This document shows, piece after piece, positions 38,126-57,022 of a stretch of 64,000 nucleotides of DNA. The stretch's first letter is position 1. Each line of letters opens with the position of its first letter. The notes beneath the pieces are model-generated. The model was not told where the DNA came from. It did not search any database and saw only the letters and a list, made by a program, of their open reading frames with translations. Made by a program: the position numbers and the translations under genes. Origin of the DNA: an uncultured Eubacteriales bacterium (lineage in GTDB: Bacteria > Bacillota > Clostridia > Oscillospirales > CAG-272); assembly GCA_949451655.1 (NCBI GenBank), contig CASTST010000001.1, positions 1,981 to 65,980 of the forward strand, in the 5' to 3' direction.

Positions 38126-40093
<1,968 letters not shown>

Positions 40094-40117
40094 TTACAGC
40101 ATGCGGTGCGCAATGCT

Positions 40118-40405
40118 TTATTTTTCATAATTTTCCTGCTGTCCGGCACGTCCGCACAAACTGCGGGCAGACAGCTTACATAAAATGACCCGCTCATCCG
40201 TATCGCGAGAACGTGCGGTGCGGGATTTTCCCGTAAGGAGAAAGGATTTCGGCAAATCGTCTCCTGCGAGGATCAGTTTTTTTTCTTTTTCCGCAAAGCG
40301 CAGAAATTCTTTGGTTGTTTTTTGCGTATTGACGTTGTCTATATCAAAGATACCGATAATATCGGATTTTGTAACAGACACGTCTGCACCCAGGTATAAA
40401 AACAT
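40118..40405 (-). CDS. remB: DUF370 protein (RemB/YaaB-like)
   Basis: 95-aa ORF. SDIIGIFDID...FL are DUF370 hallmarks. Its position immediately upstream of gyrB matches Bacillus. Confidence 0.8.
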   Translation of the reverse strand: MFLYLGADVSVTKSDIIGIFDIDNVNTQKTTKEFLRFAEKEKKLILAGDDLPKSFLLTGKSRTARSRDTDERVILCKLSARSLCGRAGQQENYEK

Positions 40406-40523
40406 AAGTGTCCTTTCAAATAAGCTAAATACGGCTTTTATTGGAAAGAGACTCTAAATAGGATATATATTTTAGGGTCTCACTTGGTACAGGGGGGCAC
40501 ATTAGCCAAAGTTTCCACTTTAT

Positions 40524-41372
40524 AAGGCTCCCCCAGCAAAAGGAGTTTCCATATAGCACAAACTTCAAAAGGCTCTCTTGCGCTATAAGGAATATGACGT
40601 ATCAAATTACCACCATACTCAAGCCTCCCCCAAACAAAGGAAAGTGGCGCAGCGCAAACTTCCACTTCCTTCATAAGCCCCCCCATGTGAGGACCTGCTG
40701 CGCAGTTCCGAGGGGGTGGCTTTCCATATGCGAGTCGGGGGGATTGTCTGCATATACTGCCGATTTTGAGATCATTCAAAATGATAGTAAAACAATCCCT
40801 CAGTCTCCGCTACCGCGGAGCCAGCTCCCTTTACACAAGGGAGCCTTTATAAATTGGGGAGCGCTATCGCGCCAGCTACCACCTCACCAAAGCCCCCTTA
40901 TACTGAAGCCACATAGCGGAAGGTGGTGGCGTAGTAAGTTTTCGCCCCATTCAAGCCTCCCCCCAGCAAAGGGGGGGTGGGTTTTGCGCAGCAAAACTCG
41001 GAGGGATTGTTTGCGCATACTGCCGATTTGAAGAAATACAAATTGAAAGCAAAGACAATCCCTCACCCGCTTCGCGGGAGCTCCCTTTGCACAAGGGAGC
41101 CTTTTAAAGTTATGTGCTACACAGGAGTTCCTTTTGCTGGGGGAGCCTATAATCAAGCCCTAAGCCTCCCCTGTGCAAGGGGAGGTGTCAGCTAAGCGTA
41201 GCGTTGCTGACGGAGGGGTTGTTTCGCACATATCGCCACTTTATGGTTCCTGCGAAATGATAGTTTTACAATCCCTCAGTCACGGCTAAGCCGTGCCAGA
41301 TCCTTTACTGGAGGGAGCCTTTTGGTTTGATGCTTCATGACAGCTCCCGATAAAGCCACGCAGTGAATTCCC
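40524..41372 (+). repeat. Mosaic hairpin-repeat array R15 (3 units in tandem)
   Basis: Cores at 40739-40799, 41003-41062 and 41215-41275 (the last degenerate, with GGGGTTGT), all F. This is the longest array in the window and fills the dnaN-remB gap. Confidence 0.9.
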
Positions 41373-41402
41373 GCTGATCCTTATAAAGTTCCTTACTCTT
41401 TC

Positions 41403-42557
41403 TTATTTTCCGTTCATCCGCAAAGGCATAATGAACAAGGTATATTTTACCGGCTGTCTCTCTTCTATTTCTCCCTCGCCGGGTTCTATACACATACCCA
41501 TGAGCGGTCCGTTCATCCGCAGACACACCACTTCCGTCTCACCTGCTGCTTTCAGTGCATCCAAAAGATACCGGCAATTAAACGCAATTACCAAGGTTTC
41601 TCCTGTAAAATGAATCGGCATCTCTTCATAGATACTTCCGCCGGCAGATGAAGATGAAATTTTCAACATTCCCTCCTCAAATTCCAGCTTAATATACGTT
41701 TTTGAATTGCTTCCTCCCAGTTTATCTTCCGTTACAATAGACGCACGTTCCACTGCGCGGATCAGCTCTGCTGCGTTAATAAATGCAATCCGGTCATAAT
41801 TCTCCGGCAAGATTCTGTTATAATTGAGATACTCCCCATCAATCAATCTGGAAAAATAGGTATATCCGTCAATCTGGAAAATAACATGCTTTCTTGCGAG
41901 GGAAACGGTGATTTCTTCTTCCGTATCTTTTATCATGCGCATGATTTCCATCAGAATTCTTCCGGGAATGATGAAGGACGCATCCGGCGCTCCCTCTTCC
42001 AAATTTGCCTGTGCAAGTCCCAATCGGTTTCCGTCGCATCCCACGCAACGCAGCGTTTCATCTTCTACTGTAAAATAAACACCCGTAAAAATTGGCTTGG
42101 ATGCGTTCTGCGCAATGGCAAAAATCGTTTTGGATATCATTTTCCGCAGAAGATACTGGGGCATTTTATAATTTCTGTCTCCTGATAACAGCGGCAGCGC
42201 AGGAAAGTTTTCTCCCGGCAGTGCATTGATTTCAAATGTGCTGTTTCCGCTTTTAATATGCACACGGTTTTTATCGTCCACTTCTATGAGAATATCTCCG
42301 GCAGGCAGACTGCGGACTATCTGCAAAATATTTTGGCTGTTTATAATATAGCTTCCTTCCTGCAAAATAGTTGCCTCCACAGAAGTACGCAATCCCTTTT
42401 CCATATCGTATGCTGTAATCTGGCAGGTTCCCTCTGCGGGTCCGGGACACTCGAACAATATTCCTTCAATTGCTGCTACTGTATTTCTTGCAGGGGCAAC
42501 GGAAGCAGCTGGCGCCAGTGCTGCAAGGAGTGTATCTCTATCAAATTGCACTTTCAT
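41403..42557 (-). CDS. dnaN: DNA polymerase III subunit beta
   Basis: ATG (MKVQFDRDTLL...) at 42557. The ORF track uses TTG at 42569. Sliding-clamp sequence throughout. Confidence 0.95.
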   Translation of the reverse strand: MKVQFDRDTLLAALAPAASVAPARNTVAAIEGILFECPGPAEGTCQITAYDMEKGLRTSVEATILQEGSYIINSQNILQIVRSLPAGDILIEVDDKNRVHIKSGNSTFEINALPGENFPALPLLSGDRNYKMPQYLLRKMISKTIFAIAQNASKPIFTGVYFTVEDETLRCVGCDGNRLGLAQANLEEGAPDASFIIPGRILMEIMRMIKDTEEEITVSLARKHVIFQIDGYTYFSRLIDGEYLNYNRILPENYDRIAFINAAELIRAVERASIVTEDKLGGSNSKTYIKLEFEEGMLKISSSSAGGSIYEEMPIHFTGETLVIAFNCRYLLDALKAAGETEVVCLRMNGPLMGMCIEPGEGEIEERQPVKYTLFIMPLRMNGK

Positions 42558-42569
42558 AATGATATTCAA

Positions 42570-43054
42570 CCTTTCTTTGCAAGCAATCTGTACGCTGCGC
42601 TATGCAGTCCGGTCAGCAGTGTAATGCTTGCTTTTTCAATAATAAATAAAATAAATATAATAATAAATAAAACAGAAGAAACAGTAGGTACTGTGGAAAT
42701 TGTGGAAAACCGGGAAAAGCCTGTCACCACTGTAAAAATTTAGTGGATGTTTCAATTTTGCTTTTTGGAAAACCCTTGGAAATCTGTGGAAAAACAGAAC
42801 GAATTTTTCCGAATTTTAGATTTTTTAGTTTCATTGGGAAAATATATGTTTTCCAAAGGTATTTTTTCTTTCCATATCCTGTGGAAAAGTCTTTTTATTG
42901 ATGCAGGAGTAAAACAGGAAAAAAGTTTTCCACAGGATCGCATTTTTGTATTCCAAAGGAATACGCCGTTTGACAAAAAGGCTTTTCTTTCCCTTTTCCG
43001 GACTTTTTCCAAAGGGTTTTCCACAGCTTTTCTCCCTTTGGAAAAGTCTTTGGA
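42570..43054. other. oriC (dnaA-dnaN spacer) with a DnaA-box cluster
   Basis: TGTGGAAAT at 42692-42700. TGTGGAAAA at 42701-42709, 42785-42793 and 42880-42888. TTTTCCACA at 42926-42934 and 43017-43025. The latter two forms match the 9-bp consensus TTATCCACA at 8 of 9 positions. Weaker TTTTCCAAA sites lie at 42849 and 43005. No credible coding ORF. Confidence 0.8.
42638..42672. other. AT-only tract, candidate DNA unwinding element of oriC
   Basis: 35 consecutive A/T bases (AATAATAAATAAAATAAATATAATAATAAATAAAA) between the DnaA-box cluster and dnaN. Confidence 0.6.
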
Positions 43055-44470
43055 TTAGCTTTTGACTTCTGTAATGATTTCCACAATTTCATTATTCAGC
43101 CGGTGATTGTTTTGTATCTCTGTTTCAATCGCCTGAATATTGCTGTGGACGGTGGAATGATCCCTGTCCAGCATTTTTCCGATTTGCGGAAGGGACAGAT
43201 CCAGTACCTTACGGATCACATACATGGACACATTTCTGGCTGTGCGGATATTTTTGGTGCGTCCTTTTCCCAAAATCTGTTCCACAGTAACGTCATATTT
43301 TCGTGCGGTAACTTCCAGTATATTGTCCACCGTTTCGCTGACTGGTTTGTTTTCCCGGAAATATTCCGGAATGGAGGATTTCACCATTTCCAGCGTAATT
43401 GGTCGTCCGCTCAGAAAGGAAACTGCGCCGATTTTTTTGAGCGCGCCTTCAATCTGACGGATATTGGAATCCAGCCGTTCTGCTAAAAAGGCAAGCACGG
43501 TGTTGGGTACATTCAGATTGTTTTTTTCCGCCTTTTTCTGGAGAATAGCAAGCCGAAGTTCATATTCGGGCGGCTGCACATCTGCAATCATACCCTGTAC
43601 AAAACGGGTTTTAATCCGTTCTTCCAGAGTGAACATTTCCCGGGGAGGACGGTCGCTGGTGACAACAATTTGCTTGCGGTTTTCATACAGCGCATTGAAG
43701 GTGTGGAAAAATTCTTCCTGCGTGGAGGTTTTTCCGGATACGAACTGAATATCGTCGATGAGCAGCATATCGGCTTTGCGGTATTTATCCCGAAATTTTC
43801 CTGTTGTTTTTTTGGATATGGATTCAATCAGTTCGTTCATGAAATCTTCGCTTTTAGTGCAGATAATTGACATGTTCGGCCGCATTTTCTGCACCCGGTT
43901 TGCGATAGCATACATGAGATGGGTTTTTCCAAGCCCGCTTGGACCGTAAATGAACAGGGGGTTATAGTTATGATGCCCGCCGGGATCGTTGGATACAGCC
44001 ACGCTGCAGGCGTGTGCAAACTGATTGGAGGAGCCGACAATAAAATTTTCAAAGGTATATTCCGGGCAAAGTCCTGAAGAATGGAGAATTTCATCTGATT
44101 CTTCCGTCTCGGTAAGATCGGATCTGTTTTGCATGGCGTCCGATTCATGATTTTCCTGTTCCATCGCAATTCGATCGGTAGGAATGCAGAAGTTGCGTTC
44201 CCGGACTACATCGCAGATGATTTCAATATCCGGCTCATATCCCAGGGCATCTGTAACGCTTTTTTTTATCAGTTCCCCGCATTTGGTAACAAGAAATTTT
44301 CGTTTCAGTTCATCGCTTGTTGCGAAGATGAGCTTTTCCGTGTCGATTTGCAGCAGATGCAGATCGGAAAACCAAAGATCGAACGCTGTTTCCGACATAG
44401 TGGCATTTTTGCGGATCTGATCAATGATTGAATTCATAAACAGGGAAAGTTCTTCCTGTGACGATTCCAT
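43055..44470 (-). CDS. dnaA: Chromosomal replication initiator protein DnaA
   Basis: 471-aa ORF with AAAGGAG RBS, AAA+ motifs (GPSGLGKTHL) and a C-terminal DnaA-box-binding domain. Confidence 0.97.
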   Translation of the reverse strand: MESSQEELSLFMNSIIDQIRKNATMSETAFDLWFSDLHLLQIDTEKLIFATSDELKRKFLVTKCGELIKKSVTDALGYEPDIEIICDVVRERNFCIPTDRIAMEQENHESDAMQNRSDLTETEESDEILHSSGLCPEYTFENFIVGSSNQFAHACSVAVSNDPGGHHNYNPLFIYGPSGLGKTHLMYAIANRVQKMRPNMSIICTKSEDFMNELIESISKKTTGKFRDKYRKADMLLIDDIQFVSGKTSTQEEFFHTFNALYENRKQIVVTSDRPPREMFTLEERIKTRFVQGMIADVQPPEYELRLAILQKKAEKNNLNVPNTVLAFLAERLDSNIRQIEGALKKIGAVSFLSGRPITLEMVKSSIPEYFRENKPVSETVDNILEVTARKYDVTVEQILGKGRTKNIRTARNVSMYVIRKVLDLSLPQIGKMLDRDHSTVHSNIQAIETEIQNNHRLNNEIVEIITEVKS

Positions 44471-44550
44471 GCTGTCTGCTCCTTTCCGGAACGGAAAACT
44501 TGTTTCCGTTCGTATTTTATCTTCATTATAATTAAATGCTATATAAAGTT

Positions 44551-44579
44551 ATTATAGCACAAACAGTAGTTTTTTTCAA
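44551..44579 (-). promoter_or_regulatory. Sigma-A promoter of dnaA
   Basis: On the minus strand: TTGAAA (44574-44579), a 17-nt spacer, then TGcTATAAT (44551-44559). About 80 nt upstream of the dnaA ATG. Confidence 0.65.
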
Positions 44580-44674
44580 GGGAAAAGGTAAGAGTTTTGT
44601 GCTATATTGAGAATAAAAAATATTATGAAATGGTTCCTATATGATAGATTCGATTTTTAGATTTCAACAAACAA

Positions 44675-45097
44675 AAAAGCCCCCTTATCGGATGGAACCA
44701 ATATAAAAAGGCATCCCCCAGTAAAGGGTGCCTTCAAAAACATACCAAGCCTCCTTTGTGCAAAAGGAGGTGGCACAGCGTAAGCTGTGACGGAGGAATT
44801 GTCTCGCACATATCGCCGATTTGTAGTTTCTGCAAAATGATAGAATTACAATCCCTCAGTCTCCGCTGCGCGGATCCAGCTCCCTTTGCACAAGGGAGCC
44901 TTTTTAATGGGGGGCGCTACGTGACGCTCCCTAGGATTCGCATAGCGGATCCTCACATGGGAGCCTTTTTGCGGGTACCGCTTCACGACATCTTCCTTTA
45001 CTGGGGGTGTCTTCAAAAAAACATACTTTAAGGCCCCCTTTGCACAAGGGGGCCTTATAACGTGGGTGCTATGTGACAGTTCCCTTTGCCAGGGAAT
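44675..45097 (+). repeat. Mosaic hairpin-repeat array R16 (1 unit)
   Basis: Core at 44795-44855 (F). The unit at 44749-44905 is a clean exemplar, and its core plus left arm nearly match the copy at 1300-1384. Confidence 0.9.
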
Positions 45098-45123
45098 TTA
45101 TAAAATAAACGCGTGACTGCGTG

Positions 45124-46044
45124 TTACAGCACAAACAAACGTATCGGTTTGATTGCACTGCCCTTTTCCGGATATTCCCGTACTTCTCCCAATGCAAAAA
45201 ACGTATCATTTTGATAGATCCGTACATGCGTTCCAAGCTGGAAATCTGTTTTCAGCTTCCATTGATACAGTTCTGTACCTCCACGGATTAGCTTTGCCTG
45301 AAAATCGTTTACGTGTATGGAAGGACAATCTGCAAATAAGGATTCACAGGGGCGCACCATAGCAATCCGTTCTTCTATTGTTGCAGCTTCCAGTTCTTCA
45401 ATCGTGTGTGCATGGGTTAAATCGTACAGACCGGATCTGGTACGGCGCAGCGCCGCCATAACTCCGCCGCAGCCAAGTTTATCTCCAATATCTGCGCATA
45501 GTGTACGTATATAAGTTCCTTTGGAACATGCAACGTTCAGTTTATAGGTTTTATCTGTTAGCTTTTCCACATCAATTGAATCAATATGTATGGGTCGGCT
45601 TTCCCGCTCAATTATCTCTCCCTGACGGGCTGCGTCAACGAGCTTCACCCCGCCTACTTTGATTGCACTATACATAGGGGGCATTTGCATGATATCTCCG
45701 ATAAAGGTGGATATAACAGAACGCACGGTATTTTCATCGGGAATAAGGTTTGTTTCAGATAAAATTTCTCCAGTGATATCTTGAGTATCTGTAGTCATTC
45801 CAAGCTGCAGTATCGCTTCATATTCCTTATTATTGGATAGGAGAAATTCGCTGGCTTTGACTGCTCTGCCAACCAGAACGGGCAGTACGCCGGTGGCAAG
45901 GGGATCCAATGTTCCTGTATGTCCTACACGGGGCGTATCGTAAAGTTTTCGCAGAATTTGCACGATACGATGGCTGGTAACGCCTTCATGCTTATCAATG
46001 ATAATTACACCGGACACAATGTCCGGTTTGTCTCTTCGTTTCAT
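45124..46044 (-). CDS. truB: tRNA pseudouridine(55) synthase
   Basis: Inner ATG (MKRRDKPDIVSGVIIIDKHEGVTSH...) overlapping the nrnA stop (ATGA). Catalytic GTLDP motif. Confidence 0.92.
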   Translation of the reverse strand: MKRRDKPDIVSGVIIIDKHEGVTSHRIVQILRKLYDTPRVGHTGTLDPLATGVLPVLVGRAVKASEFLLSNNKEYEAILQLGMTTDTQDITGEILSETNLIPDENTVRSVISTFIGDIMQMPPMYSAIKVGGVKLVDAARQGEIIERESRPIHIDSIDVEKLTDKTYKLNVACSKGTYIRTLCADIGDKLGCGGVMAALRRTRSGLYDLTHAHTIEELEAATIEERIAMVRPCESLFADCPSIHVNDFQAKLIRGGTELYQWKLKTDFQLGTHVRIYQNDTFFALGEVREYPEKGSAIKPIRLFVL

Positions 46045-47102
46045 ATATTGTTTTCTTTCATATATAAATTTATTGGATCTGCAAAAGCAGCTACAACCTT
46101 CTCTGCCGCTTCTTCGCATGAAGACGCTGTTATAGCGGCACCGGCTGCTCGTTTGTGTCCGCCGCCGCCAAACTTTGATAAAACTGCGGCAACATCAATA
46201 TCACAGTTGGATCTGGCAGAAATTTTAAAGGTGCCCGGGTCTGTTTTGCTTTCTTTTAAAGATAATCCGACCAATACGCCCGAAACGGAACGGGGGATGT
46301 CCACCATTCCTCCAAAATCAAAGTCAGATAAACCGTTTTCCGCAGGCAAAGATGCAGAAATGCATACATAAGCCAATATATTGTCATATGCAAGGTGCAG
46401 GCGTTCTATTACCAATTTTTGTGCCTGTAATTCCTGCATGGTACGACACCCGTGGAGACGATGGGCAATGCTTGCAGGATCGCCACCTCCATCGTTGGCG
46501 TGATTGATGGTTTCAACAAGAGCCGCACCGATGCGGAAGGTTTCCGGCGTGGTATTGCTGTATTGGAAGGAACCTGTATCTGCAGAAATAGCAGCGTATA
46601 TTGCACGGCAGACGGAAGGATTTTCCGTGATTTTTTCTCTTTGCATCAATTCCTTATATATAGCAAAAATCAGTTCTCCTGTGGCGCTTGCATTTGGCTG
46701 TAAACAATAGGAAGAAAAAAGAGTGCAGTTTCCATGATGATCTATGGAAAGGGTTACCTGGTCTGCAAGATTGGATAAACGACCGAGCTGTGTAGGAGAA
46801 GCAACATCTATAGACCAGATATAGTCATAGTCTTTTTCCATATTTTCCGTATATTCAATGGAAGTTTGTCCGTCCAGCAAAAAGCGGAGGTATTCCGGCA
46901 CATCTGATGTGCAGGCGCAATGCGCAGTACCGCCCATAAGTGTATATATTTTGCGCAGTGCAAATGCGGAACCTACCGTATCCCCGTCCGGATTTACATG
47001 ACAAAGAAGCAGCAGTTTTTTATCGGATTTTATATATGCTTCCAGCAGGTTGCATACTTCCGATATGTTAAGCTGTAAAAAATTTGAATTGTTCTGTATC
47101 AT
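46041..47102 (-). CDS. nrnA: DHH-family phosphoesterase (NrnA-like)
   Basis: 353-aa ORF with DHH motifs (HVNPDGD, DHHGN) and the DHHA1 GGGH motif. ATGA overlap with rbfA. Confidence 0.85.
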   Translation of the reverse strand: MIQNNSNFLQLNISEVCNLLEAYIKSDKKLLLLCHVNPDGDTVGSAFALRKIYTLMGGTAHCACTSDVPEYLRFLLDGQTSIEYTENMEKDYDYIWSIDVASPTQLGRLSNLADQVTLSIDHHGNCTLFSSYCLQPNASATGELIFAIYKELMQREKITENPSVCRAIYAAISADTGSFQYSNTTPETFRIGAALVETINHANDGGGDPASIAHRLHGCRTMQELQAQKLVIERLHLAYDNILAYVCISASLPAENGLSDFDFGGMVDIPRSVSGVLVGLSLKESKTDPGTFKISARSNCDIDVAAVLSKFGGGGHKRAAGAAITASSCEEAAEKVVAAFADPINLYMKENNI

Positions 47103-47488
47103 GCGTTATCCTCAGATTCTGTTTCTTCCGGATCGCTGAAAGTGAGATTGTTGATTTTTGCAGCGATGTCTACACCTCTGCGCAAAGAGTCATCTAATAT
47201 AAAGGATAATTCCGGCGTAATGCGCAGGTTCAATCGTTGTGCCAACTGGCTGCGTATAAATCCGGCGGCGCTGCGCAGTCCCTGTGCGAGTTCTTTCATT
47301 TCTTCCGGTGTTGCATTATCGGACAATGTGGAATAAAAAACTTTTGCATATTTAAAGTCCGGTGTCACTTCCACAGAGGTGACGGTGATAAAAGCGCCGG
47401 AAACCCGGGGATCTTTCACATCCCGGAGAATATCGCATATTTCCTGGCGAGCGGCGTCGCCCACTCTGTGCTGTCTATATTTTCCCAT
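47099..47488 (-). CDS. rbfA: Ribosome-binding factor A
   Basis: Inner ATG (MGKYRQHRVGDAARQEICDILRDVKDPRV...) of ORF 47099..47569. RbfA-like with an acidic tail. Confidence 0.88.
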   Translation of the reverse strand: MGKYRQHRVGDAARQEICDILRDVKDPRVSGAFITVTSVEVTPDFKYAKVFYSTLSDNATPEEMKELAQGLRSAAGFIRSQLAQRLNLRITPELSFILDDSLRRGVDIAAKINNLTFSDPEETESEDNA

Positions 47489-47587
47489 AATATTGGCTCC
47501 ATTTCGGTTATAAGATAAATTGTATATATTATTAGAATGTCCGTATTTAGTATAGCATAAACTGGACAAAAATGGAAGAGGCGAAAA

Positions 47588-47603
47588 TGTTTCACGTGAA
47601 ACA
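47588..47603. promoter_or_regulatory. parS centromere-like site
   Basis: TGTTTCACGTGAAACA is a perfect match to the 16-bp Firmicute parS palindrome. It is intergenic, upstream of rbfA. Confidence 0.85.
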
Positions 47604-47657
47604 TTTTGTAATGATCAGTCTCCCTTGTTGCTGGATTTTGTATAGCACAAATTATAT

Positions 47658-47958
47658 AAAGGCTCCCCTCAGCAAAGGGAGCTGTTGCATCAAATCACAC
47701 CATACTCAAGCCTCCCTTGTGCAAAGGGAGGTGGTTTTTGCTGTGCAAAAACCGGAGGGATTGTAAAGCGATCATTTTGCAGGAATTGCAAATCAACAAT
47801 ATAGCTTTGACAATCCCTCAGTCTCCGCTACGCGAAGCCAGCTCCCTTTGCACAAGGGAGCCTATAAAAGTTGGGCTCCATTGCGACTGCTCCCTTTGAT
47901 AGGGGGGAGGCTTTTAACGTGGTGAGGATTCACTGCGCGGCTCCAGCAGAAAGGAGTC
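47658..47958. repeat. Mosaic hairpin-repeat array R17 (1 unit with core inverted relative to its arms)
   Basis: Core at 47757-47817 reads GATCATTTTGCAGG...CAAATCAACA (R). The arms are in F layout: GGAGGTGG-hairpin-CCGGAGGGATTGT on the left and ACAATCCCTCAG-hairpin-AGCTCCC on the right. Confidence 0.85.
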
Positions 47959-48010
47959 TTGGAGAGGTGGAAGCTATCCCAGCAAAAAAAGCTTCTGCAC
48001 AGGCAAACGA

Positions 48011-48039
48011 AAAAGAACCGCCATATGGCGGTTCTTTTT
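48011..48039. terminator. Bidirectional intrinsic terminator after cysS
   Basis: AAAAGAACCGCCA-TA-TGGCGGTTCTTTT, a 12-bp stem with A/T runs on both sides, 7 nt from the cysS stop. Confidence 0.85.
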
Positions 48040-48045
48040 ACTGTT

Positions 48046-49464
48046 TTATTTTTTCAGCTTAAATGTAGTGCCTTGTGCGGTATCTTCTAAAATAACGCCC
48101 TGTTCCAAAAGTGCGGCACGAATTGCATCCGCTTTTGCATAATCTTTATCCTTCTTTGCAGCAGAACGAAGAGCAATTTGCTCCTCAATCTGTGCAATCC
48201 ACGCAGGATCTGCATTTTCCAATGCATTCGCTTCCCGGATTTTTGCAGCGCCTTCGATCAGATTCAAACACAAAACCTGATCAAAGTCCCGGATCAATGC
48301 AAGCTTTGTGCCATCGCTAATGTCTGCTTTCAGCACGTCATACAAAGTTGTGATTGCAAGGGATGTATTCAAATCATTATCCATTGCTGCTGCAAAGGAC
48401 GCTTTGTATGGTTCAGCGGCAGTTCCGTCCGCATGACCGTCTGCAAGCTTTGCAATGTTGCCCAGCAGCTTATCATAAGCAGTTGCAGCGTTGTCCAAAT
48501 TCTCCCATGTAAAAATCAAAGATTTGCGATAGTGGGATTGGAGACAGAAAAACCGATATGCCATCGGATCATAACCTTTGTCCTCCAAAAGGGATACGGT
48601 CAAAAATTCTCCGCTGGATTTGCTCATTTTTCCACTGTTTGTATTGAGATGCAGCACATGGAACCAATGCTTGCACCATTCATGACCTACATATGCTTCA
48701 CTCTGGGCAATCTCATTTGTGTGGTGAGGAAAAATATTGTCTACGCCGCCGCAATGGATATCCAGATATTCTCCCAAATGCTTCATGGAAATGCAGGAGC
48801 ATTCAATATGCCAACCAGGATATCCCAAACCCCAGGGACTGTTCCATTTCAATTCCTGATCGTCGAACTTGGATTTGGTAAACCAAAGCACAAAATCCGC
48901 TTTATTTTTTTTATTATCGTCCTTTTCAACGCCTTCCCGCACACCTTCCTGTAAATCGTCCTCCTGAAAGTTGTGGAAAACATTATACTGGGGAATGGTG
49001 GAGGTATCAAAATATACATTGCCGCCCGCAATATACGCATGACCATCAGCAAGCAGTTTTTTGATAACTTTAATAAATTCGCCAATGCATTTTGTGGCAG
49101 GTTCTACCACGTCGGGGCGGCGAATATTTAATTTTTTGCAGTCATTGAAAAACGCATCGGTATAATACTGGGCGATTTCCAAAACAGTCTTTTTCTCCCG
49201 TTTTGCGCCCTTAAGCATTTTATCTTCGCCGGTATCAGCATCGCTGGTGAGATGTCCAACATCAGTAATATTCATGACCCGTTTTACATCCAAGCCGGTA
49301 TAACGAAGATATTTTTCCAGCACATCTTCCATAATATAAGTGCGCAGATTTCCGATATGGGCATAATGATATACGGTAGGTCCACAGGTATACATAGATA
49401 CCTTGCCGGGCTGACGGGGAACAAAATCTTCTTTTTCACGGGTTAGCGTATTATAAAGCTTCAT
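48046..49464 (-). CDS. cysS: Cysteine--tRNA ligase
   Basis: 472-aa ORF with HIGN and KMSKS motifs. The start overlaps the stop of the upstream CPBP gene. Confidence 0.96.
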   Translation of the reverse strand: MKLYNTLTREKEDFVPRQPGKVSMYTCGPTVYHYAHIGNLRTYIMEDVLEKYLRYTGLDVKRVMNITDVGHLTSDADTGEDKMLKGAKREKKTVLEIAQYYTDAFFNDCKKLNIRRPDVVEPATKCIGEFIKVIKKLLADGHAYIAGGNVYFDTSTIPQYNVFHNFQEDDLQEGVREGVEKDDNKKNKADFVLWFTKSKFDDQELKWNSPWGLGYPGWHIECSCISMKHLGEYLDIHCGGVDNIFPHHTNEIAQSEAYVGHEWCKHWFHVLHLNTNSGKMSKSSGEFLTVSLLEDKGYDPMAYRFFCLQSHYRKSLIFTWENLDNAATAYDKLLGNIAKLADGHADGTAAEPYKASFAAAMDNDLNTSLAITTLYDVLKADISDGTKLALIRDFDQVLCLNLIEGAAKIREANALENADPAWIAQIEEQIALRSAAKKDKDYAKADAIRAALLEQGVILEDTAQGTTFKLKK

Positions 49465-50420
49465 AAGGGATTCCTTTCCGAATGGGGATTTGCATTGATT
49501 TCTGCTTTATTGGATTCTTTTCTGAATATAAAATACATTCCAAACAGGAAAATTGCAATACTAATAAAAAACAGAGAATAAGCCAGCATATCCGTTGTAA
49601 TCAGTGGGGTAAAATAGCTGAAGCAGTTGAATGCAATATGAAAAAGCATAGAAGGGATAATAGATTGATATTTTTCAAATAAAAGCGCCATTAAAAATCC
49701 AATCAAAGAGGCATATACAAATTGCATCCAGTTCATATGCGCAGCACCGAAGATTAAGGCTGACAGGATTTGCGCAGCCATCACAGGCATAGCCCGGCGC
49801 AGGCGGGTATAAATCAATCCCCGGAAAACGATTTCCTCTAAAATCGGTGTAATGATTCCTATGCATAGCACTTCCATGATAAAGTTGCCGCCGCCAAAGG
49901 CAAGGGTATAATACTCACTATTTGCAGCTTCCGCTTCTTTTATAGCGGGAAATAGAATGGTAAGAAGAGAAATAGCAACGACAACAATAATTTGAGCAGA
50001 AGCGCCAAGGGCAAGGGATGCAGTTCCGGCAGATGGGGATATTTTGGCAAAAGAGATTTCTTTTGTAAAACGTTTGCCCCGTAACGTATAAAATAGCAGA
50101 TAGATTAACACAAGAACCAAAGCGGAACAAATAGAAATCAATGCGAAATATTTGGAAAACGTACTCCAGTATACGTGGGAGAAAACGGCTTCATCCGTAT
50201 ATGCGGAATATGGAAGAGATCCCTGCACGCAAAGTGAATAAAGAATAACTACGCCGTTTTGTACTGCAAACATTACTCCATAGATAAACAGTGCATATAG
50301 TATGGAAAGTAAAAAATCGCCTGCGGGAGATCGTTTCGGTTGGGGTGCGCCGCAGTCAGCGCAGAAACGGTCTTTTACCAAAACATTTGGATTTCCGCAA
50401 TAATGACATTTATAACGCAT
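49461..50420 (-). CDS. CPBP-family intramembrane protease with an N-terminal zinc ribbon
   Basis: 319-aa ORF. CHYCGN...CADCG zinc ribbon, multiple TM segments, and EEIVFRG and FGAAH..HIAFN motifs. Confidence 0.8.
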   Translation of the reverse strand: MRYKCHYCGNPNVLVKDRFCADCGAPQPKRSPAGDFLLSILYALFIYGVMFAVQNGVVILYSLCVQGSLPYSAYTDEAVFSHVYWSTFSKYFALISICSALVLVLIYLLFYTLRGKRFTKEISFAKISPSAGTASLALGASAQIIVVVAISLLTILFPAIKEAEAANSEYYTLAFGGGNFIMEVLCIGIITPILEEIVFRGLIYTRLRRAMPVMAAQILSALIFGAAHMNWMQFVYASLIGFLMALLFEKYQSIIPSMLFHIAFNCFSYFTPLITTDMLAYSLFFISIAIFLFGMYFIFRKESNKAEINANPHSERNPL

Positions 50421-50472
50421 AAAATCCCTTCTTCCACAAAATAAAATTTACAATTTTTACCATATCATTGTG

Positions 50473-50890
50473 TTTCCTCAGTAAAGGGAATACATAGCAC
50501 ATGCTTAGACAACCCCTCCGTCAGCATCGCTATGCTCAGCTGACACCTCCTCGGGAGTTCGCGAAGCGAATCTCCTCCACTGGGGAGGCTAAGATTTGGT
50601 GAAGGGCTTTCCAGTAAAGAGAGGAGAAACATCTGCACTGACTTCATAAGGCGCCCCCCAGCAAAGGGAGCTGGCACGGTACAAGCTCCACCTTCCTTTA
50701 TAGCCTCCCTTGTGCAAAGGGAGGTGGGTTTTGCGCAGCAAAACGCGGAGGGATTGTATGCATGTACTGTCAACTTGAAGATTATTAAAAATGAAAGTAG
50801 AAACAATCCCTCACCCGCTTCGCGGGAGCTCCCTTTGCACAAGGGAGCCTTATAAAAGTAAATGCTACGTGATAGTTCCCTTTGCAGGAG
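50473..50890 (+). repeat. Mosaic hairpin-repeat array R18 (1 unit plus 1 partial unit)
   Basis: Core at 50750-50810 (F). A partial copy in R orientation at ~50490-50550 retains ~15 nt of core plus one arm (ACAACCCCTCCGTCAGC..GCTGACACCTCC), related to the arm at 41185-41222. Confidence 0.85.
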
Positions 50891-50966
50891 ACTGGGTATG
50901 GCAAAATCTCTGCCGTTATTCCCTATATAGTAGCATAGCACTCCTATGAAGGTATCCCATAAACCT

Positions 50967-51689
50967 TTACTTCTTACCTTCTAATTCTGCAAGCCGCTGT
51001 TCCAGCGTCTGCAGGCTGTGCCGTACAGAACACAGCTCCTGTGAAACCGGGTCAGGAATGTGCACCTGATCCAAATCAATGGGATCTACTTTGTTCCCGT
51101 CTCTGCGTACCACATGGGCGGGAATACCCACAGCTGTACAATTTTCCGGCACAGGACCGAGTACCACGGCGCCGGCTGCGATTTTTGCACCGTCACCAAC
51201 CGTAAAGTTTCCAAGCACCTTTGCCCCTGCACCTACCATTACGTTATTTCCAAGAGTAGGATGACGCTTTCCGGTGTCTTTTCCGGTACCGCCCAAAGTC
51301 ACACCCTGATACAAGGTGCAGTTGTCGCCTATAATTGTCGTTTCGCCGATTACAACACCACTGCCGTGGTCGATAAACAAACCGTGCCCGATGGTTGCAC
51401 CGGGATGAATTTCAATTCCTGTAAGAAAACGTGCAGTTTGGGATATAAAACGTGCGCTGGTATATTTCTTTTTTCGGTATAGCCGATTGGACATGCGATA
51501 TGCAAGCAGGGCGTGGAATCCGGAATAAAGCAACGCAGCTTCCGCGCGGCTTTTTACAGCCGGGTCACGGTCGCAGATTGCATCCACATCCCGCCGGGTT
51601 TCATTTACAAAATTCTGTACGCCCCGGCTGATAGATCCGAAAGACTGATCCCATGCTTTTTTGTTTATTGTAATTTTGATTTTACCCAT
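50967..51689 (-). CDS. cysE: Serine O-acetyltransferase
   Basis: 240-aa ORF with a SATase N-domain (DRDPAVKSRAEAALLYSGFHAL) and hexapeptide repeats. Confidence 0.92.
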   Translation of the reverse strand: MGKIKITINKKAWDQSFGSISRGVQNFVNETRRDVDAICDRDPAVKSRAEAALLYSGFHALLAYRMSNRLYRKKKYTSARFISQTARFLTGIEIHPGATIGHGLFIDHGSGVVIGETTIIGDNCTLYQGVTLGGTGKDTGKRHPTLGNNVMVGAGAKVLGNFTVGDGAKIAAGAVVLGPVPENCTAVGIPAHVVRRDGNKVDPIDLDQVHIPDPVSQELCSVRHSLQTLEQRLAELEGKK

Positions 51690-51763
51690 TCAAATTACCG
51701 TACTTTCTTTGGCTTAAAAGGAAAATAATCGCTTTTGTCAGTATATGCGAAAATGAGGCAGTT

Positions 51764-52633
51764 TCATTCCTGCGGTGCGGCTGTATTTCCGCCGGCAGTG
51801 TCTGCCTGTACGATTAAACCGTCTTCAAAATAGCCAGTGTAGGTTCTGCCGTCCGGCCAGGTATAGGTTCCCTGCCCCCACAGGGTGTTATTCTGAAATT
51901 CCCCTGTATATACCTCTCCATTGGGCCAGGTGTAGGTTCCCTGTCCCCAGCGCTGATCTGCAAGAAAATCTCCTTCATAAACGCCGCCGTCTGCGTATTT
52001 GTATATGCCTTTTCCTTCTTTTGCGCCTTTGACATAGGAGCCTTCATAGGACGCGCCATCCGCCATGGTATGCACGCCTTCCCCGTCCTTTAAATCGTCC
52101 TTGAAGGAGCCGGTATATACGCTTCCATCCGCCCAGGTATACGTTCCTTGCCCGGATTTGTTGCCGTTTTCATATTCACCGTCATATATATCGCCGTTTG
52201 CAAAGGTAGTCACGCCGTGACCGTGCTGCCGGTCCTCATAAAATTCCCCTTCATAAATGTCTCCATTCTCCCGGGTCAGCTTGCCGGTTCCATGCTTGAC
52301 GAGATGCTTAACTTCCCCTTCATACACATCCCCGTTTGAATATTCCAATATCTTATTTTCTGCGTCATATGTGGCGGTAAGCCCTTTTACCGCGCTGTCT
52401 CCGCCATAAGAGATATGTCCGGTGGCAGGCATGCCGTCACTATTTAAAACGCCGACAAAGGATACGGAAAATCCGGTGTCAAAGCGGTATTTAACATATC
52501 GGATCCCAAAAAGATATAAAATCCCTACGATCAGCAGAATGCTCACCAATATAGAAACGCCGATAATAATGAAGTTGGTGCGGGTTTGAAAGCCGGTTTT
52601 CATTTTGCGTTTATTTTGTTTGGGCTGGGACAT
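51764..52633 (-). CDS. Membrane-anchored MORN-repeat protein
   Basis: 289-aa ORF with GGAG RBS, one N-terminal TM segment, and about 8 YEGE/YxGxxxxGxxxGxG MORN repeats. Confidence 0.8.
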   Translation of the reverse strand: MSQPKQNKRKMKTGFQTRTNFIIIGVSILVSILLIVGILYLFGIRYVKYRFDTGFSVSFVGVLNSDGMPATGHISYGGDSAVKGLTATYDAENKILEYSNGDVYEGEVKHLVKHGTGKLTRENGDIYEGEFYEDRQHGHGVTTFANGDIYDGEYENGNKSGQGTYTWADGSVYTGSFKDDLKDGEGVHTMADGASYEGSYVKGAKEGKGIYKYADGGVYEGDFLADQRWGQGTYTWPNGEVYTGEFQNNTLWGQGTYTWPDGRTYTGYFEDGLIVQADTAGGNTAAPQE

Positions 52634-52654
52634 GACAGTCTCCTTTCGCAGGGG

Positions 52655-53221
52655 TTACAGATTTTTAAACATGGTGATTGCGTTGTCAATCATCTGCAGA
52701 AGCTCCGGAATGAAAAAAGTAGCAAGAACGGCGATAACAAGAAGAATTATCCCGCCAATGAGGAGCCAGATTGGCGCGCTTCCTTTTTTCTCATAGCGAA
52801 CCTCGGCATGATACTTTTTTTCTTCCGGTACATAAAGCCGTGCTAAGGTTAAATCCAATTTTGGATTTGGCTGTGCCGATCCGGTAAAGAAACGGCGAAT
52901 GGCGCCGAATCGTTTATGTTCCGACGGGAGTAAACATTCCCCAGGATTTGCAATAGAAACAGATTTACGCAGGGCAGTGCCGTCCCGAAGAGCGCGCTTC
53001 ATTCCCCATGCGGGACGTCCAAGCTCGGATAGCGTTTTACCTGCTTCCGGGGACAAGCATTCTGCCGCAAGGAGTGCGCGTACCACACCGCCTAAATACC
53101 ATTTATTATATATAGAGGCAATGCCGCCGATCAGTATGCCTGCGTAAAGACCCCATATAATCAGGGTGAGAGATATGGTGGAATTCTCAAATGAAAAATT
53201 TGTATAAATGTCCAGTAACAT
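52655..53221 (-). CDS. Hypothetical membrane protein
   Basis: Inner ATG (MLLDIYTNFSFE...) with AAGGAGG 7 nt upstream. The longer ORF start (53293) runs into the spacer. Two or three predicted TM segments. Confidence 0.65.
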   Translation of the reverse strand: MLLDIYTNFSFENSTISLTLIIWGLYAGILIGGIASIYNKWYLGGVVRALLAAECLSPEAGKTLSELGRPAWGMKRALRDGTALRKSVSIANPGECLLPSEHKRFGAIRRFFTGSAQPNPKLDLTLARLYVPEEKKYHAEVRYEKKGSAPIWLLIGGIILLVIAVLATFFIPELLQMIDNAITMFKNL

Positions 53222-53302
53222 AGGAGACCTCCTTATGAATCTGGATTTTTGTACGATATTTGGAGGGACTTTCGGGTGGGGGGTATAGCACAAACTTTAT
53301 TA

Positions 53303-53725
53303 GCCACCCCCAGCTGGAGTCGCGCTGCAAGTTCCCACCTAACTTTATAGGCTCTCCCAGCAAAGGGAGCTGTCACGGTGCAGGCTCCGTCCTTTTTAGC
53401 CTCCCTTGTGCAAAGGGAGGTGGCACGCCGTAGGCGTGACGAAGGGATTGTCTGTACATACTGCCGATTAGTAGATTATCCAAAATGATAGTTTTACAAT
53501 CCCCCCGCCGATTGTATCGGCACCCCCTCTTGCTGGGGGCTTCCAAACAAACCTAAGCCTCCTGTGTGAGGATCCGCTGCGCGGCTCCAAAAGGAGGTGG
53601 CGCGGCGTTAGCCGTGACGGAGGAATTGTCTGTACATACTGCTGATTTGTAGATTATCTAAAATGATAGTATTACAATCCCTCACCCGCTACGCGGGAGC
53701 TCCCTTTGCACAAGGGAGCCTTTTT
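53303..53725 (+). repeat. Mosaic hairpin-repeat array R19 (2 units)
   Basis: Cores at 53444-53503 (F, left-type arms on both sides) and 53622-53681 (F). The array ends GGGAGCCTTTTT, 12 nt from the serS stop. Confidence 0.9.
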
Positions 53726-53736
53726 ACGTTTGTATA

Positions 53737-55023
53737 TCAGTCTTTCTTCAGAATATCCGTACCAAGATACTTTTGTAAAACCTCCGGCACAGAGACGCTG
53801 CCGTCCGCATTCTGATTCTGTTCTACGATTGCGGGCAGGATGCGGCTGGTTGCCAGACCGGAACCGTTCAATGTGTGTACAAATTCCGTTGTATTGCTGC
53901 CGTCCCGCTTGAAACGGATGCTTCCCCGGCGCGCCTGATAATCCCGCGCATTGGAAACAGAGGACACTTCTTTATATCCGTCCATGGAAGGAATGTGGAT
54001 TTCAATGTCATATGTCCGTGCCATAGATGCGGAGCAGTCTGCTGCGGCAAGCTTCACGGTGCGGAAATGGAATCCCAGACCCTTTACCAGCGCTTCCGCT
54101 TTTCCTACCAGTTCTTCAAAAGCTGCGTCGGAATCCTCCGGACGGGTGTACTGTACCATTTCAACCTTGTTAAACTGATGTCCCCGTACCATGCCCCGTT
54201 CATCTGTCCGGTAAGAGCCGGCTTCCCTGCGGAAACAGGGTGTGTAGGAGATATATTTCCGGGGCAGATCTGCCTCGGTGAGAATTTCATCCCGATGGAG
54301 GGATACAAGAGCAGTTTCTGCGGTAGGCAGCATGAACCGGCGTCGCTCATCCTCCGCAGTTTCCAGCCAGTATACTTCATCCTTAAATTTCGGGAACTGA
54401 CCTGCGGTAAGTCCGCATTCGTAGCCCAGCATATGGGGTACCAGCACCAGCTCATATCCATCGGAAAGGTGGGTGTCAATAAAGTAGTTCAGCAGTGCCC
54501 ACTCCAAGCGTGCACCCATTCCGCGGTAAATCCAGAATCCGTTTCCGGACAGCTTTGTTCCCCGCTTATAGTCGATCAGTCCCAGATCGGTACACAGATC
54601 TACGTGATTTTTCGGTTCAAAATCAAAATGATGAGGCTCGCCGAAATAGCGGATCGGTTCGTTGTTCTCTTTTCCGCCGGGCGCCAGATCCGGATCCGGC
54701 AGGTTGGGCAGTCCCAGCAGCAGATTGTTGTATTCTGCTTCCACCTGTGCCAGCTTTTCATCGTTCGCTTTAATCTGTGCGGACAGCTCTTTCATAGCTG
54801 CAAAAATGGGAGAGGGATCCTTTCCCTCTTTTTTCATTTGAGGGATTTGCTTGGTGGCGCGGTTCTGTTCCGCTTTTTTTGCTTCATTCTCGCTTATCAT
54901 TTCCCGACGGCGTGCGTCCAGTTCTACAATACGCGCAATGTCGTCCTTTGCGTCTGTTCCTTTTGCCGCCAGACGGCGGACAATTTCTTCCGGATTTTCC
55001 CGAATCAGTTTAATGTCCAGCAT
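53737..55023 (-). CDS. serS: Serine--tRNA ligase
   Basis: 428-aa ORF with AGGAG RBS, an N-terminal coiled coil and class II motifs. Confidence 0.96.
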   Translation of the reverse strand: MLDIKLIRENPEEIVRRLAAKGTDAKDDIARIVELDARRREMISENEAKKAEQNRATKQIPQMKKEGKDPSPIFAAMKELSAQIKANDEKLAQVEAEYNNLLLGLPNLPDPDLAPGGKENNEPIRYFGEPHHFDFEPKNHVDLCTDLGLIDYKRGTKLSGNGFWIYRGMGARLEWALLNYFIDTHLSDGYELVLVPHMLGYECGLTAGQFPKFKDEVYWLETAEDERRRFMLPTAETALVSLHRDEILTEADLPRKYISYTPCFRREAGSYRTDERGMVRGHQFNKVEMVQYTRPEDSDAAFEELVGKAEALVKGLGFHFRTVKLAAADCSASMARTYDIEIHIPSMDGYKEVSSVSNARDYQARRGSIRFKRDGSNTTEFVHTLNGSGLATSRILPAIVEQNQNADGSVSVPEVLQKYLGTDILKKD

Positions 55024-55063
55024 TGTTGCAACTCCTAATCAGTTATATAGAAATATATAAATT

Positions 55064-55936
55064 TTATTCTTCCGTAATTTTCCTGCCGCATACGGTTTCC
55101 AGCAGGGTTTCCAAATCGGTTTCATCAGAAAATTCAATAGATATGGTTTTTCTGCCGCCTTTGGTGGAAATCCGGCACCACCGTCCGGTAAGTCCGGTAA
55201 CCTTGTGCTCCAGCTCTGCTACATAGTTTACCTGCACGCCCGGTTCCTTGGGTGCGGGTGCAGGACGCTGTTTGTTCTGGGCTTTTACGGCGGCTTCCGT
55301 TTCCCGCACGGACAGATTGCGTGCAACAATCCGCTGGGCTAAGGCTTCGATACCGTCTTTGTCCCGCAGTCCCAGCAGTGCGCGGCAGTGCCCCGCAGTC
55401 AGTCTGCCATCCTGTAACATTACCGCAATACATTCCGGCAGATCCAGCAGACGCAGCGAATTGGCAATGGCGCTGCGGGATTTTCCCAGCCGTCCTGCCA
55501 CTTCCTCCTGGGTCAGATCAAACTGGGCAAGAAGGGTTTGATATGCCTGCGCTTCTTCATATGGATTGAGATCCTCCCGCTGGAGGTTTTCGATCAGGGC
55601 AAGCTGCGCGGTACGCAAATCGTCCGCTTCCAGCAGCAGCGCGGGGATTTCCGTCAGTCCTGCCAGCTTGGACGCCCGCCACCGCCGTTCCCCGGCGATA
55701 ATCTGGTACAGTCCATTTTGCCCTTCCCGCACCAGAATCGGCTGAAGCACGCCGTTTGCAGCAATGGAATCTGCAAGCTGAGACAGTGCCTCCGGATCAA
55801 AATGCTGCCGGGGCTGGTCGCTTTTCGGCTCCACCTGAGACAGGCGCAGCTTGATGACGCTGTCCTGGGGCTGATCCGGTGTGTTGTCGGAAAAAATCAT
55901 ATCAAGCCCTCTGCCGAGGGCAGGTTTTTTTGCCAT
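55064..55936 (-). CDS. parB: Chromosome partitioning protein ParB/Spo0J
   Basis: 290-aa ORF with GGAGG RBS. ParB-box (GERRWRAS) and HTH region. Confidence 0.93.
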   Translation of the reverse strand: MAKKPALGRGLDMIFSDNTPDQPQDSVIKLRLSQVEPKSDQPRQHFDPEALSQLADSIAANGVLQPILVREGQNGLYQIIAGERRWRASKLAGLTEIPALLLEADDLRTAQLALIENLQREDLNPYEEAQAYQTLLAQFDLTQEEVAGRLGKSRSAIANSLRLLDLPECIAVMLQDGRLTAGHCRALLGLRDKDGIEALAQRIVARNLSVRETEAAVKAQNKQRPAPAPKEPGVQVNYVAELEHKVTGLTGRWCRISTKGGRKTISIEFSDETDLETLLETVCGRKITEE

Positions 55937-56006
55937 GAGTACCTCCGTATTTTATCATGGGGAAGAAGCGAATGTGCGGCTTTATTGGGGCTCGCCGCGG
56001 GCGCCG

Positions 56007-56121
56007 CTTAGCCCTTTTTTGTAAAAAAGGGCTAAGAACCCAAAAAACTTTAAAAAGGAATTATATAATTCTATTGGAGTTTTTGAGGATTCAAAAGGGA
56101 CTTTTTACAAAAAGTTCCTTT
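56007..56121. other. Three palindromes in the parA-parB spacer
   Basis: CTTAGCCCTTTTTTGTAAAAAAGGGCTAAG (56007-36), GAATTATATAATTC (56058-71) and AAAGGGACTTTTTACAAAAAGTTCCTTT (56094-121). Confidence 0.6.
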
Positions 56122-56154
56122 TGCGGGGTCAGGGGCAGCGCCCCTATGTAATTC

Positions 56155-56925: not shown

Positions 56926-57022
56926 TACATAACCTCCATATATAAATTCATACCTTATATTATAAGGCTGCGGGGGATTTTTGTCAACAGAATTTGATGC
57001 GGTGTTATAAAGATTTCGGCAA

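Follow-up and report, generated by a model that had tools for sequence, protein, structure and literature searches.

How does a short segment of DNA come to read backwards relative to the sequence on both its sides, and, once reversed, does it go on turning? The question is raised by one copy of a dispersed repeat in a 64,000-nucleotide stretch of DNA (hereafter the window) from contig CASTST010000001.1 of an uncultured Eubacteriales bacterium (GenBank assembly GCA_949451655.1). Each unit of this repeat holds an A/T-rich core between two palindromic arms, and an earlier note, made from the letters of the window alone, had claimed that in the copy at 47757-47817 the core is inverted relative to both arms, as in an invertible segment. 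The sequences that it quoted are found where it placed them, with 47700-47870 reading exactly as given, and the inversion itself is borne out. The copy is a fixed core-inversion variant of the repeat family; an active switch at this position is not supported, as the tests run on assemblies all point the other way. We consider it probable that the core was turned in an old and passive inversion between the inner repeats that bracket it, and that the result has been inherited as a fixed variant of a family resembling REPINs and BIMEs.

The repeat family and its canonical layout

The window was searched with the pattern GGGATTGT-N36-52-ACAATCCC, at most one mismatch being allowed, and exactly 28 units match. 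They are all intergenic, every one of the 28 lying between open reading frames (ORFs), and they occur at a density of about one per 2.3 kb, occupying some 7% of the window. A unit is about 165 bp of nested palindromes, comprising an A-type arm, an A/T core of 44-45 nt, and a B-type arm, read in the order H1, H2, (G)GAGGGATTGT, core, ACAATCCCTC, H3, and H4, often with a T-run after H4. The two arms, about 55 nt each, are inverted relative to each other and are of slightly different types. Each combines an outer hairpin (H1 or H4, an example of H1 being GCCTCCCTT-GTGCA-AAGGGAGG) with a variable-stem hairpin (H2 or H3) that has a GNA loop; the stem of H2 differs in sequence from copy to copy, and its pairing is always kept. 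A perfect inverted repeat, about 10 bp in each copy, encloses the core, and the conserved centre of the core, as seen in the core alignment, is quasi-palindromic (GATTTG-N11-CAAAATG), which hints at a candidate site for a dimeric protein.

The A-type arm is marked by GCC.CCC..GGG.GG-TGG and by CGG[AG]GG adjoining ATTGT, the B-type arm by GGC.CCC..GGG.GC-TG and by [AC]TGAGG or GTGAGG adjoining ATTGT, and the H2/H3 cassettes also tend to be arm-type-specific. To call core orientation, every core was set against all the rest in both directions, and the call is unambiguous in 28/28 window units. In the canonical A/B layout the core has the A arm at its ACTGCCGATTTG end and the B arm at its AAAATGATAG end. 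This fixed polarity of the arms toward the core holds in 25/28 units of the window and in 74/99 units of its core family. The earlier note had put the canonical share of the window at 27 of 28 units; the tally is 25 A/B, two A/A (29515-29575 and 53444-53503, with A-type arms on both sides), and one B/A, or swapped, unit (binomial p = 8e-7 for 25 vs 1).

Parts of the unit also occur alone. Solo arms at 4283-4335 and 50480-50520 consist of an A arm and its inner repeat, without core or partner, and the former shows 100% identity along 53 nt with the A arm of the unit at 1002-1054. A small hairpin module (AAGGCTCCCCCCAGCAAAGGGAGC) in combination with a spacer forms short tandem arrays with a period of roughly 30-53 nt that flank many units, as at 918-1025, 1421-1523, 25954-26059, and 33498-33581, and about 27 such small modules stand solo in the window.

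The reversed core at 47757

The one swapped unit of the window extends over 47708-47862 (hereafter the 47757 unit) and is the sole window unit with both arms on the wrong side of the core. Its core is reversed relative to both arms, and the arms are otherwise complete and type-typical. The minus orientation is favoured in 26 of the 27 pairwise comparisons, and the forward-minus-reverse score is 11.15, vs -0.18 +/- 3.18 for 2000 shuffles, a value that 1/2000 of them reaches. The inverted repeat around the core, given before as 8 bp, proves longer, with 10 perfect base pairs (GAGGGATTGT/ACAATCCCTC) that the core ends AAAGC/GCTTT extend to 15 bp with one bulged base. Taken whole, the unit can fold as one long hairpin, for which the free energy is -49 kcal/mol in the DNA form and -80 to -85 kcal/mol in the RNA form; the fold z-scores are -9 to -10 on either strand.

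The swapped form across related genomes

Is the swapped arrangement peculiar to this copy? Related metagenome-assembled genomes (MAGs) were sampled with an orientation-neutral palindromic pattern, GAGGGATTGT-N43-46-ACAATCCCTC, which is present at more than 100 of their loci. The source MAGs are of uncultured Clostridia, Oscillospiraceae, and Eubacteriales from goat, sheep, buffalo, and deer guts, and the host lineage of the family is uncultured herbivore-gut Clostridia, Oscillospirales-like. The arms are conserved among these MAGs and the cores differ by lineage; they fall into eight or more unrelated families, with core lengths of 43-46 nt throughout.

Orientation-free clustering took in 158 units from the window and the related MAGs. 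The window's core family comprises 99 of them, with 74 A/B, 14 B/A, 7 A/A, and 0 B/B, and seven other core families with the same arms account for 40 units, among which none is swapped and two are B/B (Fisher p = 0.01 for the difference between the two groups). Expressed as a share of A/B plus B/A units, the swapped form makes up 14/88 in the window's core family vs 0/38 in the others; among units met incidentally, outside the search pattern, the share is about 3/24. The swapped arrangement is thus a recurrent minority state of the core family and not a unique event.

The composition of these units bears directly on how they arose. In 14/14 B/A units the swap involves both arms at once, inner and outer markers alike, and because B/B units are absent and A/A units rare, yet 14 B/A units exist, a single concerted event that reverses the core is needed. 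In this respect the earlier note, which had taken one inversion across the inverted repeats as the simplest origin, is upheld. The B/A cores do not form a group of their own: identity among them is 0.642, vs 0.633 between B/A and A/B cores (permutation p = 0.24), and their nearest neighbours are mostly A/B cores, although a few B/A cores from separate loci within one MAG resemble each other (for example L063:4242 and L085:3970, 0.84 identity). Because the B/A cores do not cluster and only a few units of the same MAG are alike, the swapped state appears to arise repeatedly and occasionally to propagate.

Two further observations concern the family at large. At least seven other mutually unrelated cores lie inside the same arms and the same GAGGGATTGT/ACAATCCCTC repeats in L010-L110 (for example L066, L056, L088, L041, and L089), so that core length is constrained while core sequence is lineage-specific. 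In the window's core family, arm exchange is apparently one-directional, since A/A units occur (seven) and B/B units do not.

Strain comparison at the cysS-rbfA spacer

The 47757 unit has the cysS terminator (48010-48039) on one side and the rbfA promoter/operator region on the other, and lies in a spacer that is highly variable among close strains. Strains were compared on assembled contigs encoding an identical RbfA protein, and assemblies are the sole basis of the comparison. The window is 100% identical to Ga0080710_1000032, and three Joint Genome Institute (JGI) assemblies from different samples (L001, L008, and L009) are identical to it across the 47757 unit; L005, a poor-quality copy, has the same arrangement. 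In L004, with flanking genes 98.6% identical, the same swapped unit is present (A arm, reversed core with the unusual half CAAAGCTATAyTGyTGATTTG, B arm), and the whole block together with a 27-nt flank is inverted relative to rbfA. The contig L007 has the right core half and right arm as in the window and in the same orientation, and a canonical left core half joined to an A arm, the breakpoint falling inside the core; it stops at a contig end within the repeat and may be chimeric. An unrelated canonical unit occupies the spacer in L002 and L122, no unit is found there in L003, and the 207-bp spacer of a sister species (RbfA 89% identical) holds no unit and hence no orthologue to compare.

A comparison with sister strains had been named as one way of detecting flips. 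No core-only flip is seen among the window, L001, L008, L009, L005, and L004, and every contig carrying the 47757 unit keeps the same core-to-arm relation. As judged from this constancy, the swapped state would predate the split of the sampled strains and would have been stably inherited.

Upstream of rbfA, some 95 bp from the start of the gene, the same spacer holds a perfect 24-bp palindrome, AAAATGTTTCACGTGAAACATTTT, at 47584-47607. The central 14 bp, TGTTTCACGTGAAACA, are unchanged in every strain and also in the sister species, and the sequence upstream of them turns over. The palindrome is probably a transcription-factor operator of the rbfA-nrnA-truB operon. A metagenome search with the conserved rbfA operator/promoter sequence returned one contig, which starts at the match and has no sequence upstream of it.

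Inversions at other loci and scales

Rearrangement of the family is not confined to the cysS-rbfA spacer. The 45-nt core of window unit 31269, in the mnmE-rny spacer, is identical in L021:2286, which also has the same cassettes in its arms, and the block made up of the unit and a 27-nt spacer is inverted between window 31146-31354 and L021:2211-2372, the L021 MAG being about 90% identical to the window in genes. This block is bounded by a 14-bp inverted repeat, GCAAAGGGRGGTGG/CCACCYCCCTTTGC, formed by two hairpin modules. At the same site L012 has its arms oriented as in the window and a core that is reversed and diverged. A helix-turn-helix (HTH) gene (57438-57755) has units on either side of it; the ten contigs compared there, from about five haplotypes, hold 30 of them, and every one is canonical. 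Whole-unit orientation differs between strain groups at both spacers flanking this gene, and no core-only flip is seen at either of the two sites among the roughly five strain haplotypes. The smallest case is the perfectly palindromic arm hairpin GTCACAGC-NNN-GCTGTGAC, in which the three loop nucleotides are AAA or TTT about equally, 12 to 14. Module-bracketed segments seem, from these comparisons, to have been inverted at three scales, of 3 nt, 45 nt, and more than 200 nt, and the nested palindromes appear to drive frequent local inversions.

The spacers around the HTH gene vary in other ways. The units at 57082-57141 and 58210-58269 have the opposite whole-unit orientation and different arm cassettes in L127-L136, which encode an identical HTH protein, and the parA-HTH spacer ranges from about 510 to 1040 bp among contigs with that protein.

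Orientation relative to genes

The units are also oriented with respect to their neighbours. In co-directional gene contexts, canonical cores run against transcription in 25 cases and with it in 9, and in the window alone the figures are 14 to 2 by hand, with Pfam-supported strands, and 13 to 2 on an ORF basis. Swapped cores run against transcription once and with it five times (p = 0.014 vs canonical). Because the cores of A/B and B/A units run opposite ways relative to genes, it is the arms, not the core, that follow the orientation rule. The outer hairpin of the B arm with its T-run is terminator-like when read outward, and the likely reason for the rule is that only the unit orientation that does not terminate sense transcription is tolerated.

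A scan of 40000-59999 for terminator-like sites gave 52, vs a shuffled expectation of 24.4, an excess due in large part to solo modules and the outer hairpins of B arms. Many intrinsic terminators of the genome may come from the repeats.

Origin of the reversed core

The explanation that we favour starts from the architecture of the unit. Every module is a palindrome or an inverted copy of another, and the segments between modules would on that account be prone to inversion. The 47757 core would have been reversed once, in the ancestor of the sampled strains, with crossover or template-switch points lying inside GAGGGATTGT/ACAATCCCTC. Replication template switching across the hairpin stem may have been the mechanism; alternatively, since each arm is an inverted copy of the other, another unit could have aligned antiparallel and produced the same outcome by gene conversion. 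The swapped state would afterwards have been inherited as a fixed variant. The 47757 unit has the marks of a template switch, namely a 10-bp repeat, a core whose length of 45 nt is kept, a core that aligns only in reverse, and canonical arms, and where the arms exceed 9 bp, template switching is documented to turn spacers and hairpin loops around, in a repeated and reversible manner (PMC8604942; PMC8794818). That the arms follow the orientation rule and that the core centre is quasi-palindromic suggests, moreover, that a flip of the core is nearly neutral and that its reversal costs little.

Several points weigh against this explanation. Published template-switch inversions have spacers of 2-8 nt (PMC8604942; PMC8794818), and 45 nt is much longer. 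No ancestor of the 47757 unit in the canonical orientation was found among the sampled contigs, and for this reason inversion in situ is indistinguishable here from antiparallel gene conversion. The contrast of 14/88 with 0/38 swapped units could reflect something specific to the window's core, and an inversion polymorphism between strains at 98.6% identity suggests fairly high rearrangement rates. Inversions down to 57 bp that are variable within clonal populations have, furthermore, been reported in Bacteroides (10.1101/2023.03.11.532203), and with a 57-bp inversion on record, small size alone does not exclude an enzyme-driven flip; the argument that 45 bp is too short for enzymatic inversion was accordingly softened.

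An enzymatic flip is the substance of one alternative, in which a dedicated site-specific recombinase acts at GGGATTGT/ACAATCCC and, as in a programmed inverton, turns the cores so as to re-orient an outward extended -10 promoter. Such a scheme finds its elements in the perfect inverted repeats flanking the core, in an extended -10-like motif (TGnTAnnnT) that points into the B arm in 14/28 cores, in the recurrence of the swapped state without clustering (14/99 units), and in the reported invertons of about 57 bp. Orientation is, however, skewed 74 to 14 and fixed in every contig of the 47757 locus; the two sites beside the HTH gene show no core-only flip among strain haplotypes; and the seven sister core families, with identical inner repeats, have 0 flips in 40 units. 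The earlier note had advised searching the genome for invertase genes; a Pfam scan of ~50 ORFs of the window detected no Resolvase, Phage_integrase, Y1_Tnp, or DDE domain. The promoter-like motif said to occur in about half of the copies is indeed there in 14/28 cores, but it has no usable -35 in any of them and is absent from the 47757 core, and a sigma-70 scan found no promoter-like site in any core between 40 and 60 kb, that of the 47757 unit having none on either strand. With the core-to-arm relation constant across contigs and no recombinase domain in the ORFs scanned, the proposal that the core is a working invertible element is not supported, and a programmed inverton is very improbable. 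A broader version, in which the family is a genome-wide set of miniature invertible cassettes flipped appreciably at GGGATTGT/ACAATCCC by a recombinase or a hairpin-driven mechanism, is a long shot. If it were true, local transcription, sense or antisense, might be toggled in hundreds of intergenic regions, and the swapped fraction of 14/99, specific to the window's core family, together with the block inversions at 98.6% identity would be its visible trace.

Exchange of arms between units had been named by the earlier note as a possible refutation, and exchange does occur in the family, its signs being the A/A units at 29515 and 53444, the chimeric arms with inner-A and outer-B markers in L014 and L025, and the difference of L007 in its left arm and left core half, with a breakpoint inside the core. 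Two separate arm replacements, by recombination or gene conversion, could in principle have produced the 47757 unit with a core that never moved. But with 0/99 B/B and only 7 A/A units, about zero double replacements are expected vs the 14 seen, every marker of both arms is co-swapped in 14/14 B/A units, and L007 could be chimeric at its contig end in the repeat; exchange alone is insufficient for the swapped form, and this route is quite unlikely. Unlikely, too, is a distinct swapped subfamily that originated once and spread by transposition, the 47757 unit having been inserted already swapped. It would account for the unusual left core half joined to a B arm that L004 and the window share, and for the mutual nearest neighbours among B/A cores of one MAG (L063:4242 and L085:3970); yet B/A cores are no more alike among themselves than to A/B cores (p = 0.24) and most of their neighbours are A/B, L004 and the window represent the same locus and not two insertions, and neither a target-site duplication nor an autonomous parent element was found. 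As to a repeat mis-joined in a metagenome contig, the repeats lie close together and contigs such as L004 and L007 frequently stop within one, but the identical unit stands in three independent JGI assemblies from different samples, a related version is present in a Logan assembly, and the swapped form recurs in 13 units of other MAGs, so that an assembly artefact has a negligible claim. An old, passive inversion between the inner repeats remains the explanation that we would adopt.

Parts of the 47757 unit and its surroundings

Read from left to right on the plus strand, the unit opens with the outer hairpin of the A arm (H1, GCCTCCCTT-GTGCA-AAGGGAGG, followed by TGG) at 47710-47731, which carries A-type markers and was called as a stem-loop. 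The variable-stem hairpin of the same arm (H2, TTTTTGC-TGT-GCAAAAA, plus strand) lies at 47735-47751 and belongs to the 'GTTTTGC..GCAAAAC' cassette, which is seen in A arms only and recurs in units 31269, 41003, 50750, 58210, and 62016. The left copy of the inner inverted repeat, GAGGGATTGT, occupies 47755-47764, and the G at 47754 is an A-type marker. There follows the A/T-rich 45-nt core at 47765-47809, on the minus strand and reversed relative to both arms, with the minus-strand reading CAAAGCTATATTGTTGATTTGCAATTCCTGCAAAATGATCGCTTT; its ends AAAGC (47765-47769) and GCTTT (47804-47808) are those that extend the inverted repeat. The right copy of the repeat, ACAATCCCTC, is at 47810-47819, with a B-type marker in the A at 47820. 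The B arm continues on the plus strand with its variable-stem hairpin at 47822-47839 (H3, TCTCCGC-TACG-CGAAGCC), of the 'CTCCGC..GCGGAG' cassette that is seen in B arms, among them those of units 7228, 11344, 40740, 44795, 57082, and 58210, and closes with its outer hairpin at 47841-47861 (H4, GCTCCCTT-TGCAC-AAGGGAGC; repeat family D7).

Beside the unit, at 47659-47684, stands a solo small hairpin module (GGCTCCCCTCAGCAAAGGGAGC; family D5) that was called as terminator-like; in the strain comparison, the larger block inversions break at modules like it. On the other side, a spacer (TATAAAAGTTGGGCTCCATTGCGACTG) and the next hairpin module fill 47862-47910, a segment that has the opposite orientation relative to rbfA in L004 and L003 (alignment A3).

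The small loops of the arms are strongly biased in sequence. Read toward the core, the arm triloops are GNA, with GCA in 33, GTA in 30, and GAA in 15 cases, and the complementary loops are almost absent. In the variable arm hairpins the loops are almost always GNA or GNRA (including GTAA) toward the core, as at 47735-47751 and 1024-1042, and the stems vary and stay paired. As a DNA mini-hairpin, the motif d(GCGNAGC) is unusually stable. Folded as RNA, each arm gains in stability when read toward the core, and because this holds for both arms, the element is symmetric and folding favours no transcript strand; the reading of the unit as a single structured RNA was rejected.

The window as a whole is the neighbourhood of the chromosomal origin, with dnaA, dnaN, gyrB, gyrA, parA, parB, yidC, rnpA, mnmE, rny, mreBC, and further housekeeping genes. 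The origin-region genes (dnaA, dnaN, gyrB, gyrA, parB, parA, jag, yidC, and rnpA) fall at 35458-44470 and 55064-61466, and the layout is unusual in that truB through parA lie on the strand of dnaA, on its upstream side.

Relation to known repeat systems

Rfam gives no match at gathering thresholds over the whole window and none at E <= 1 in 47600-47960, and literature searches found no description of the repeat. Tandem-repeat and CRISPR-like readings were rejected, as the copies are dispersed, with one to three per intergenic region. The family is best described as a new interspersed palindromic repeat resembling REPINs, BIMEs, and MITEs, with membership in any one of these groups unproven.

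REPINs are doublets of REP sequences that form hairpins and are mobilised by RAYT transposases, in Pseudomonas and Enterobacteria. Like them, the present units consist of two inverted palindromic units around a less conserved spacer, fold into a long hairpin, and exist in hundreds of extragenic copies in which the spacer differs between copies and lineages and the palindromes are conserved. REPIN populations, too, contain a rare reversed configuration beside the common one, AA-TT vs TT-AA (PMC3337134). The differences are considerable. An arm of the present family consists of two hairpins and a 10-bp inner repeat in about 55 nt, whereas a REP is simpler, at 16-25 nt; the host is a Firmicutes-type anaerobe; no RAYT gene was found in the 64-kb window or the fragments, nor any other transposase gene among the ~50 ORFs scanned in the window; and the core is a conserved A/T motif of 44-46 nt and not a hairpin-forming spacer.

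In the BIME-1 (RIP-RIB) elements of Escherichia coli, inverted Y and Z REPs surround an L motif with an IHF site. The A and B arms are comparable to Y and Z in being inverted around an A/T-rich central motif of fixed polarity, and solo units and mosaic clusters are common to both. BIME clusters have been associated with recombination (PMC3184786). The density of the present family, at about one unit per 2.3 kb, is far higher than that of BIMEs. Judged by eye against the consensus, no likeness to the E. coli REP is apparent.

Correia elements and other MITEs offer a third comparison. They are likewise about 100-170 bp long, have terminal inverted repeats around a core without a transposase gene, occur in several arm combinations, and can give a transcript that folds into a long hairpin, and some copies have promoter-like or terminator-like ends (PMC3184786), as here. 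In the present family, however, the arms are internally palindromic. No target-site duplication is evident, as filled sites (window 29390-29690 and 25882-26248) differ from empty ones (L012) by whole module arrays with no direct repeat at the edges, and a search of about 0.8 Mb for unpaired arms that might betray an autonomous parent found solo arms, none of them bracketing a gene.

Two processes, as distinct from repeat classes, also invite comparison. Template-switch inversions share with the 47757 unit the perfect arms of at least 10 bp, an intervening segment that alone is reverse-complemented with its length kept, and recurrence and reversibility over evolutionary time; they differ in scale, the documented 2-8 nt standing against 45 nt here and at least 200 nt for the block inversions. 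Invertons (fimS, hin, and those of Bacteroides, the targets of PhaseFinder and PhaVa) resemble the family in that a segment bounded by inverted repeats is present in both orientations across family copies. Here, in contrast, the assemblies show no heterogeneity at the 47757 locus, no recombinase was found nearby, and the 47757 copy has no promoter. Most invertons are under 300 bp, but 45 bp falls below their usual sizes, 57 bp being the shortest example cited.

Significance

Because the claim of a new invertible switch fails the available tests, the specific finding at 47757 is modest. The main interest lies in the substrate, an extremely dense repeat family with arms conserved across MAGs and lineage-specific cores, in which the orientation of cores, of whole units, and of multi-module blocks varies from strain to strain and from species to species. 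The family is a caution to those who predict invertons solely from inverted repeats, and to metagenome assembly, in which contigs are broken at the units. It is also a source of strain markers and a natural system for the rearrangement of genomes mediated by inverted repeats.

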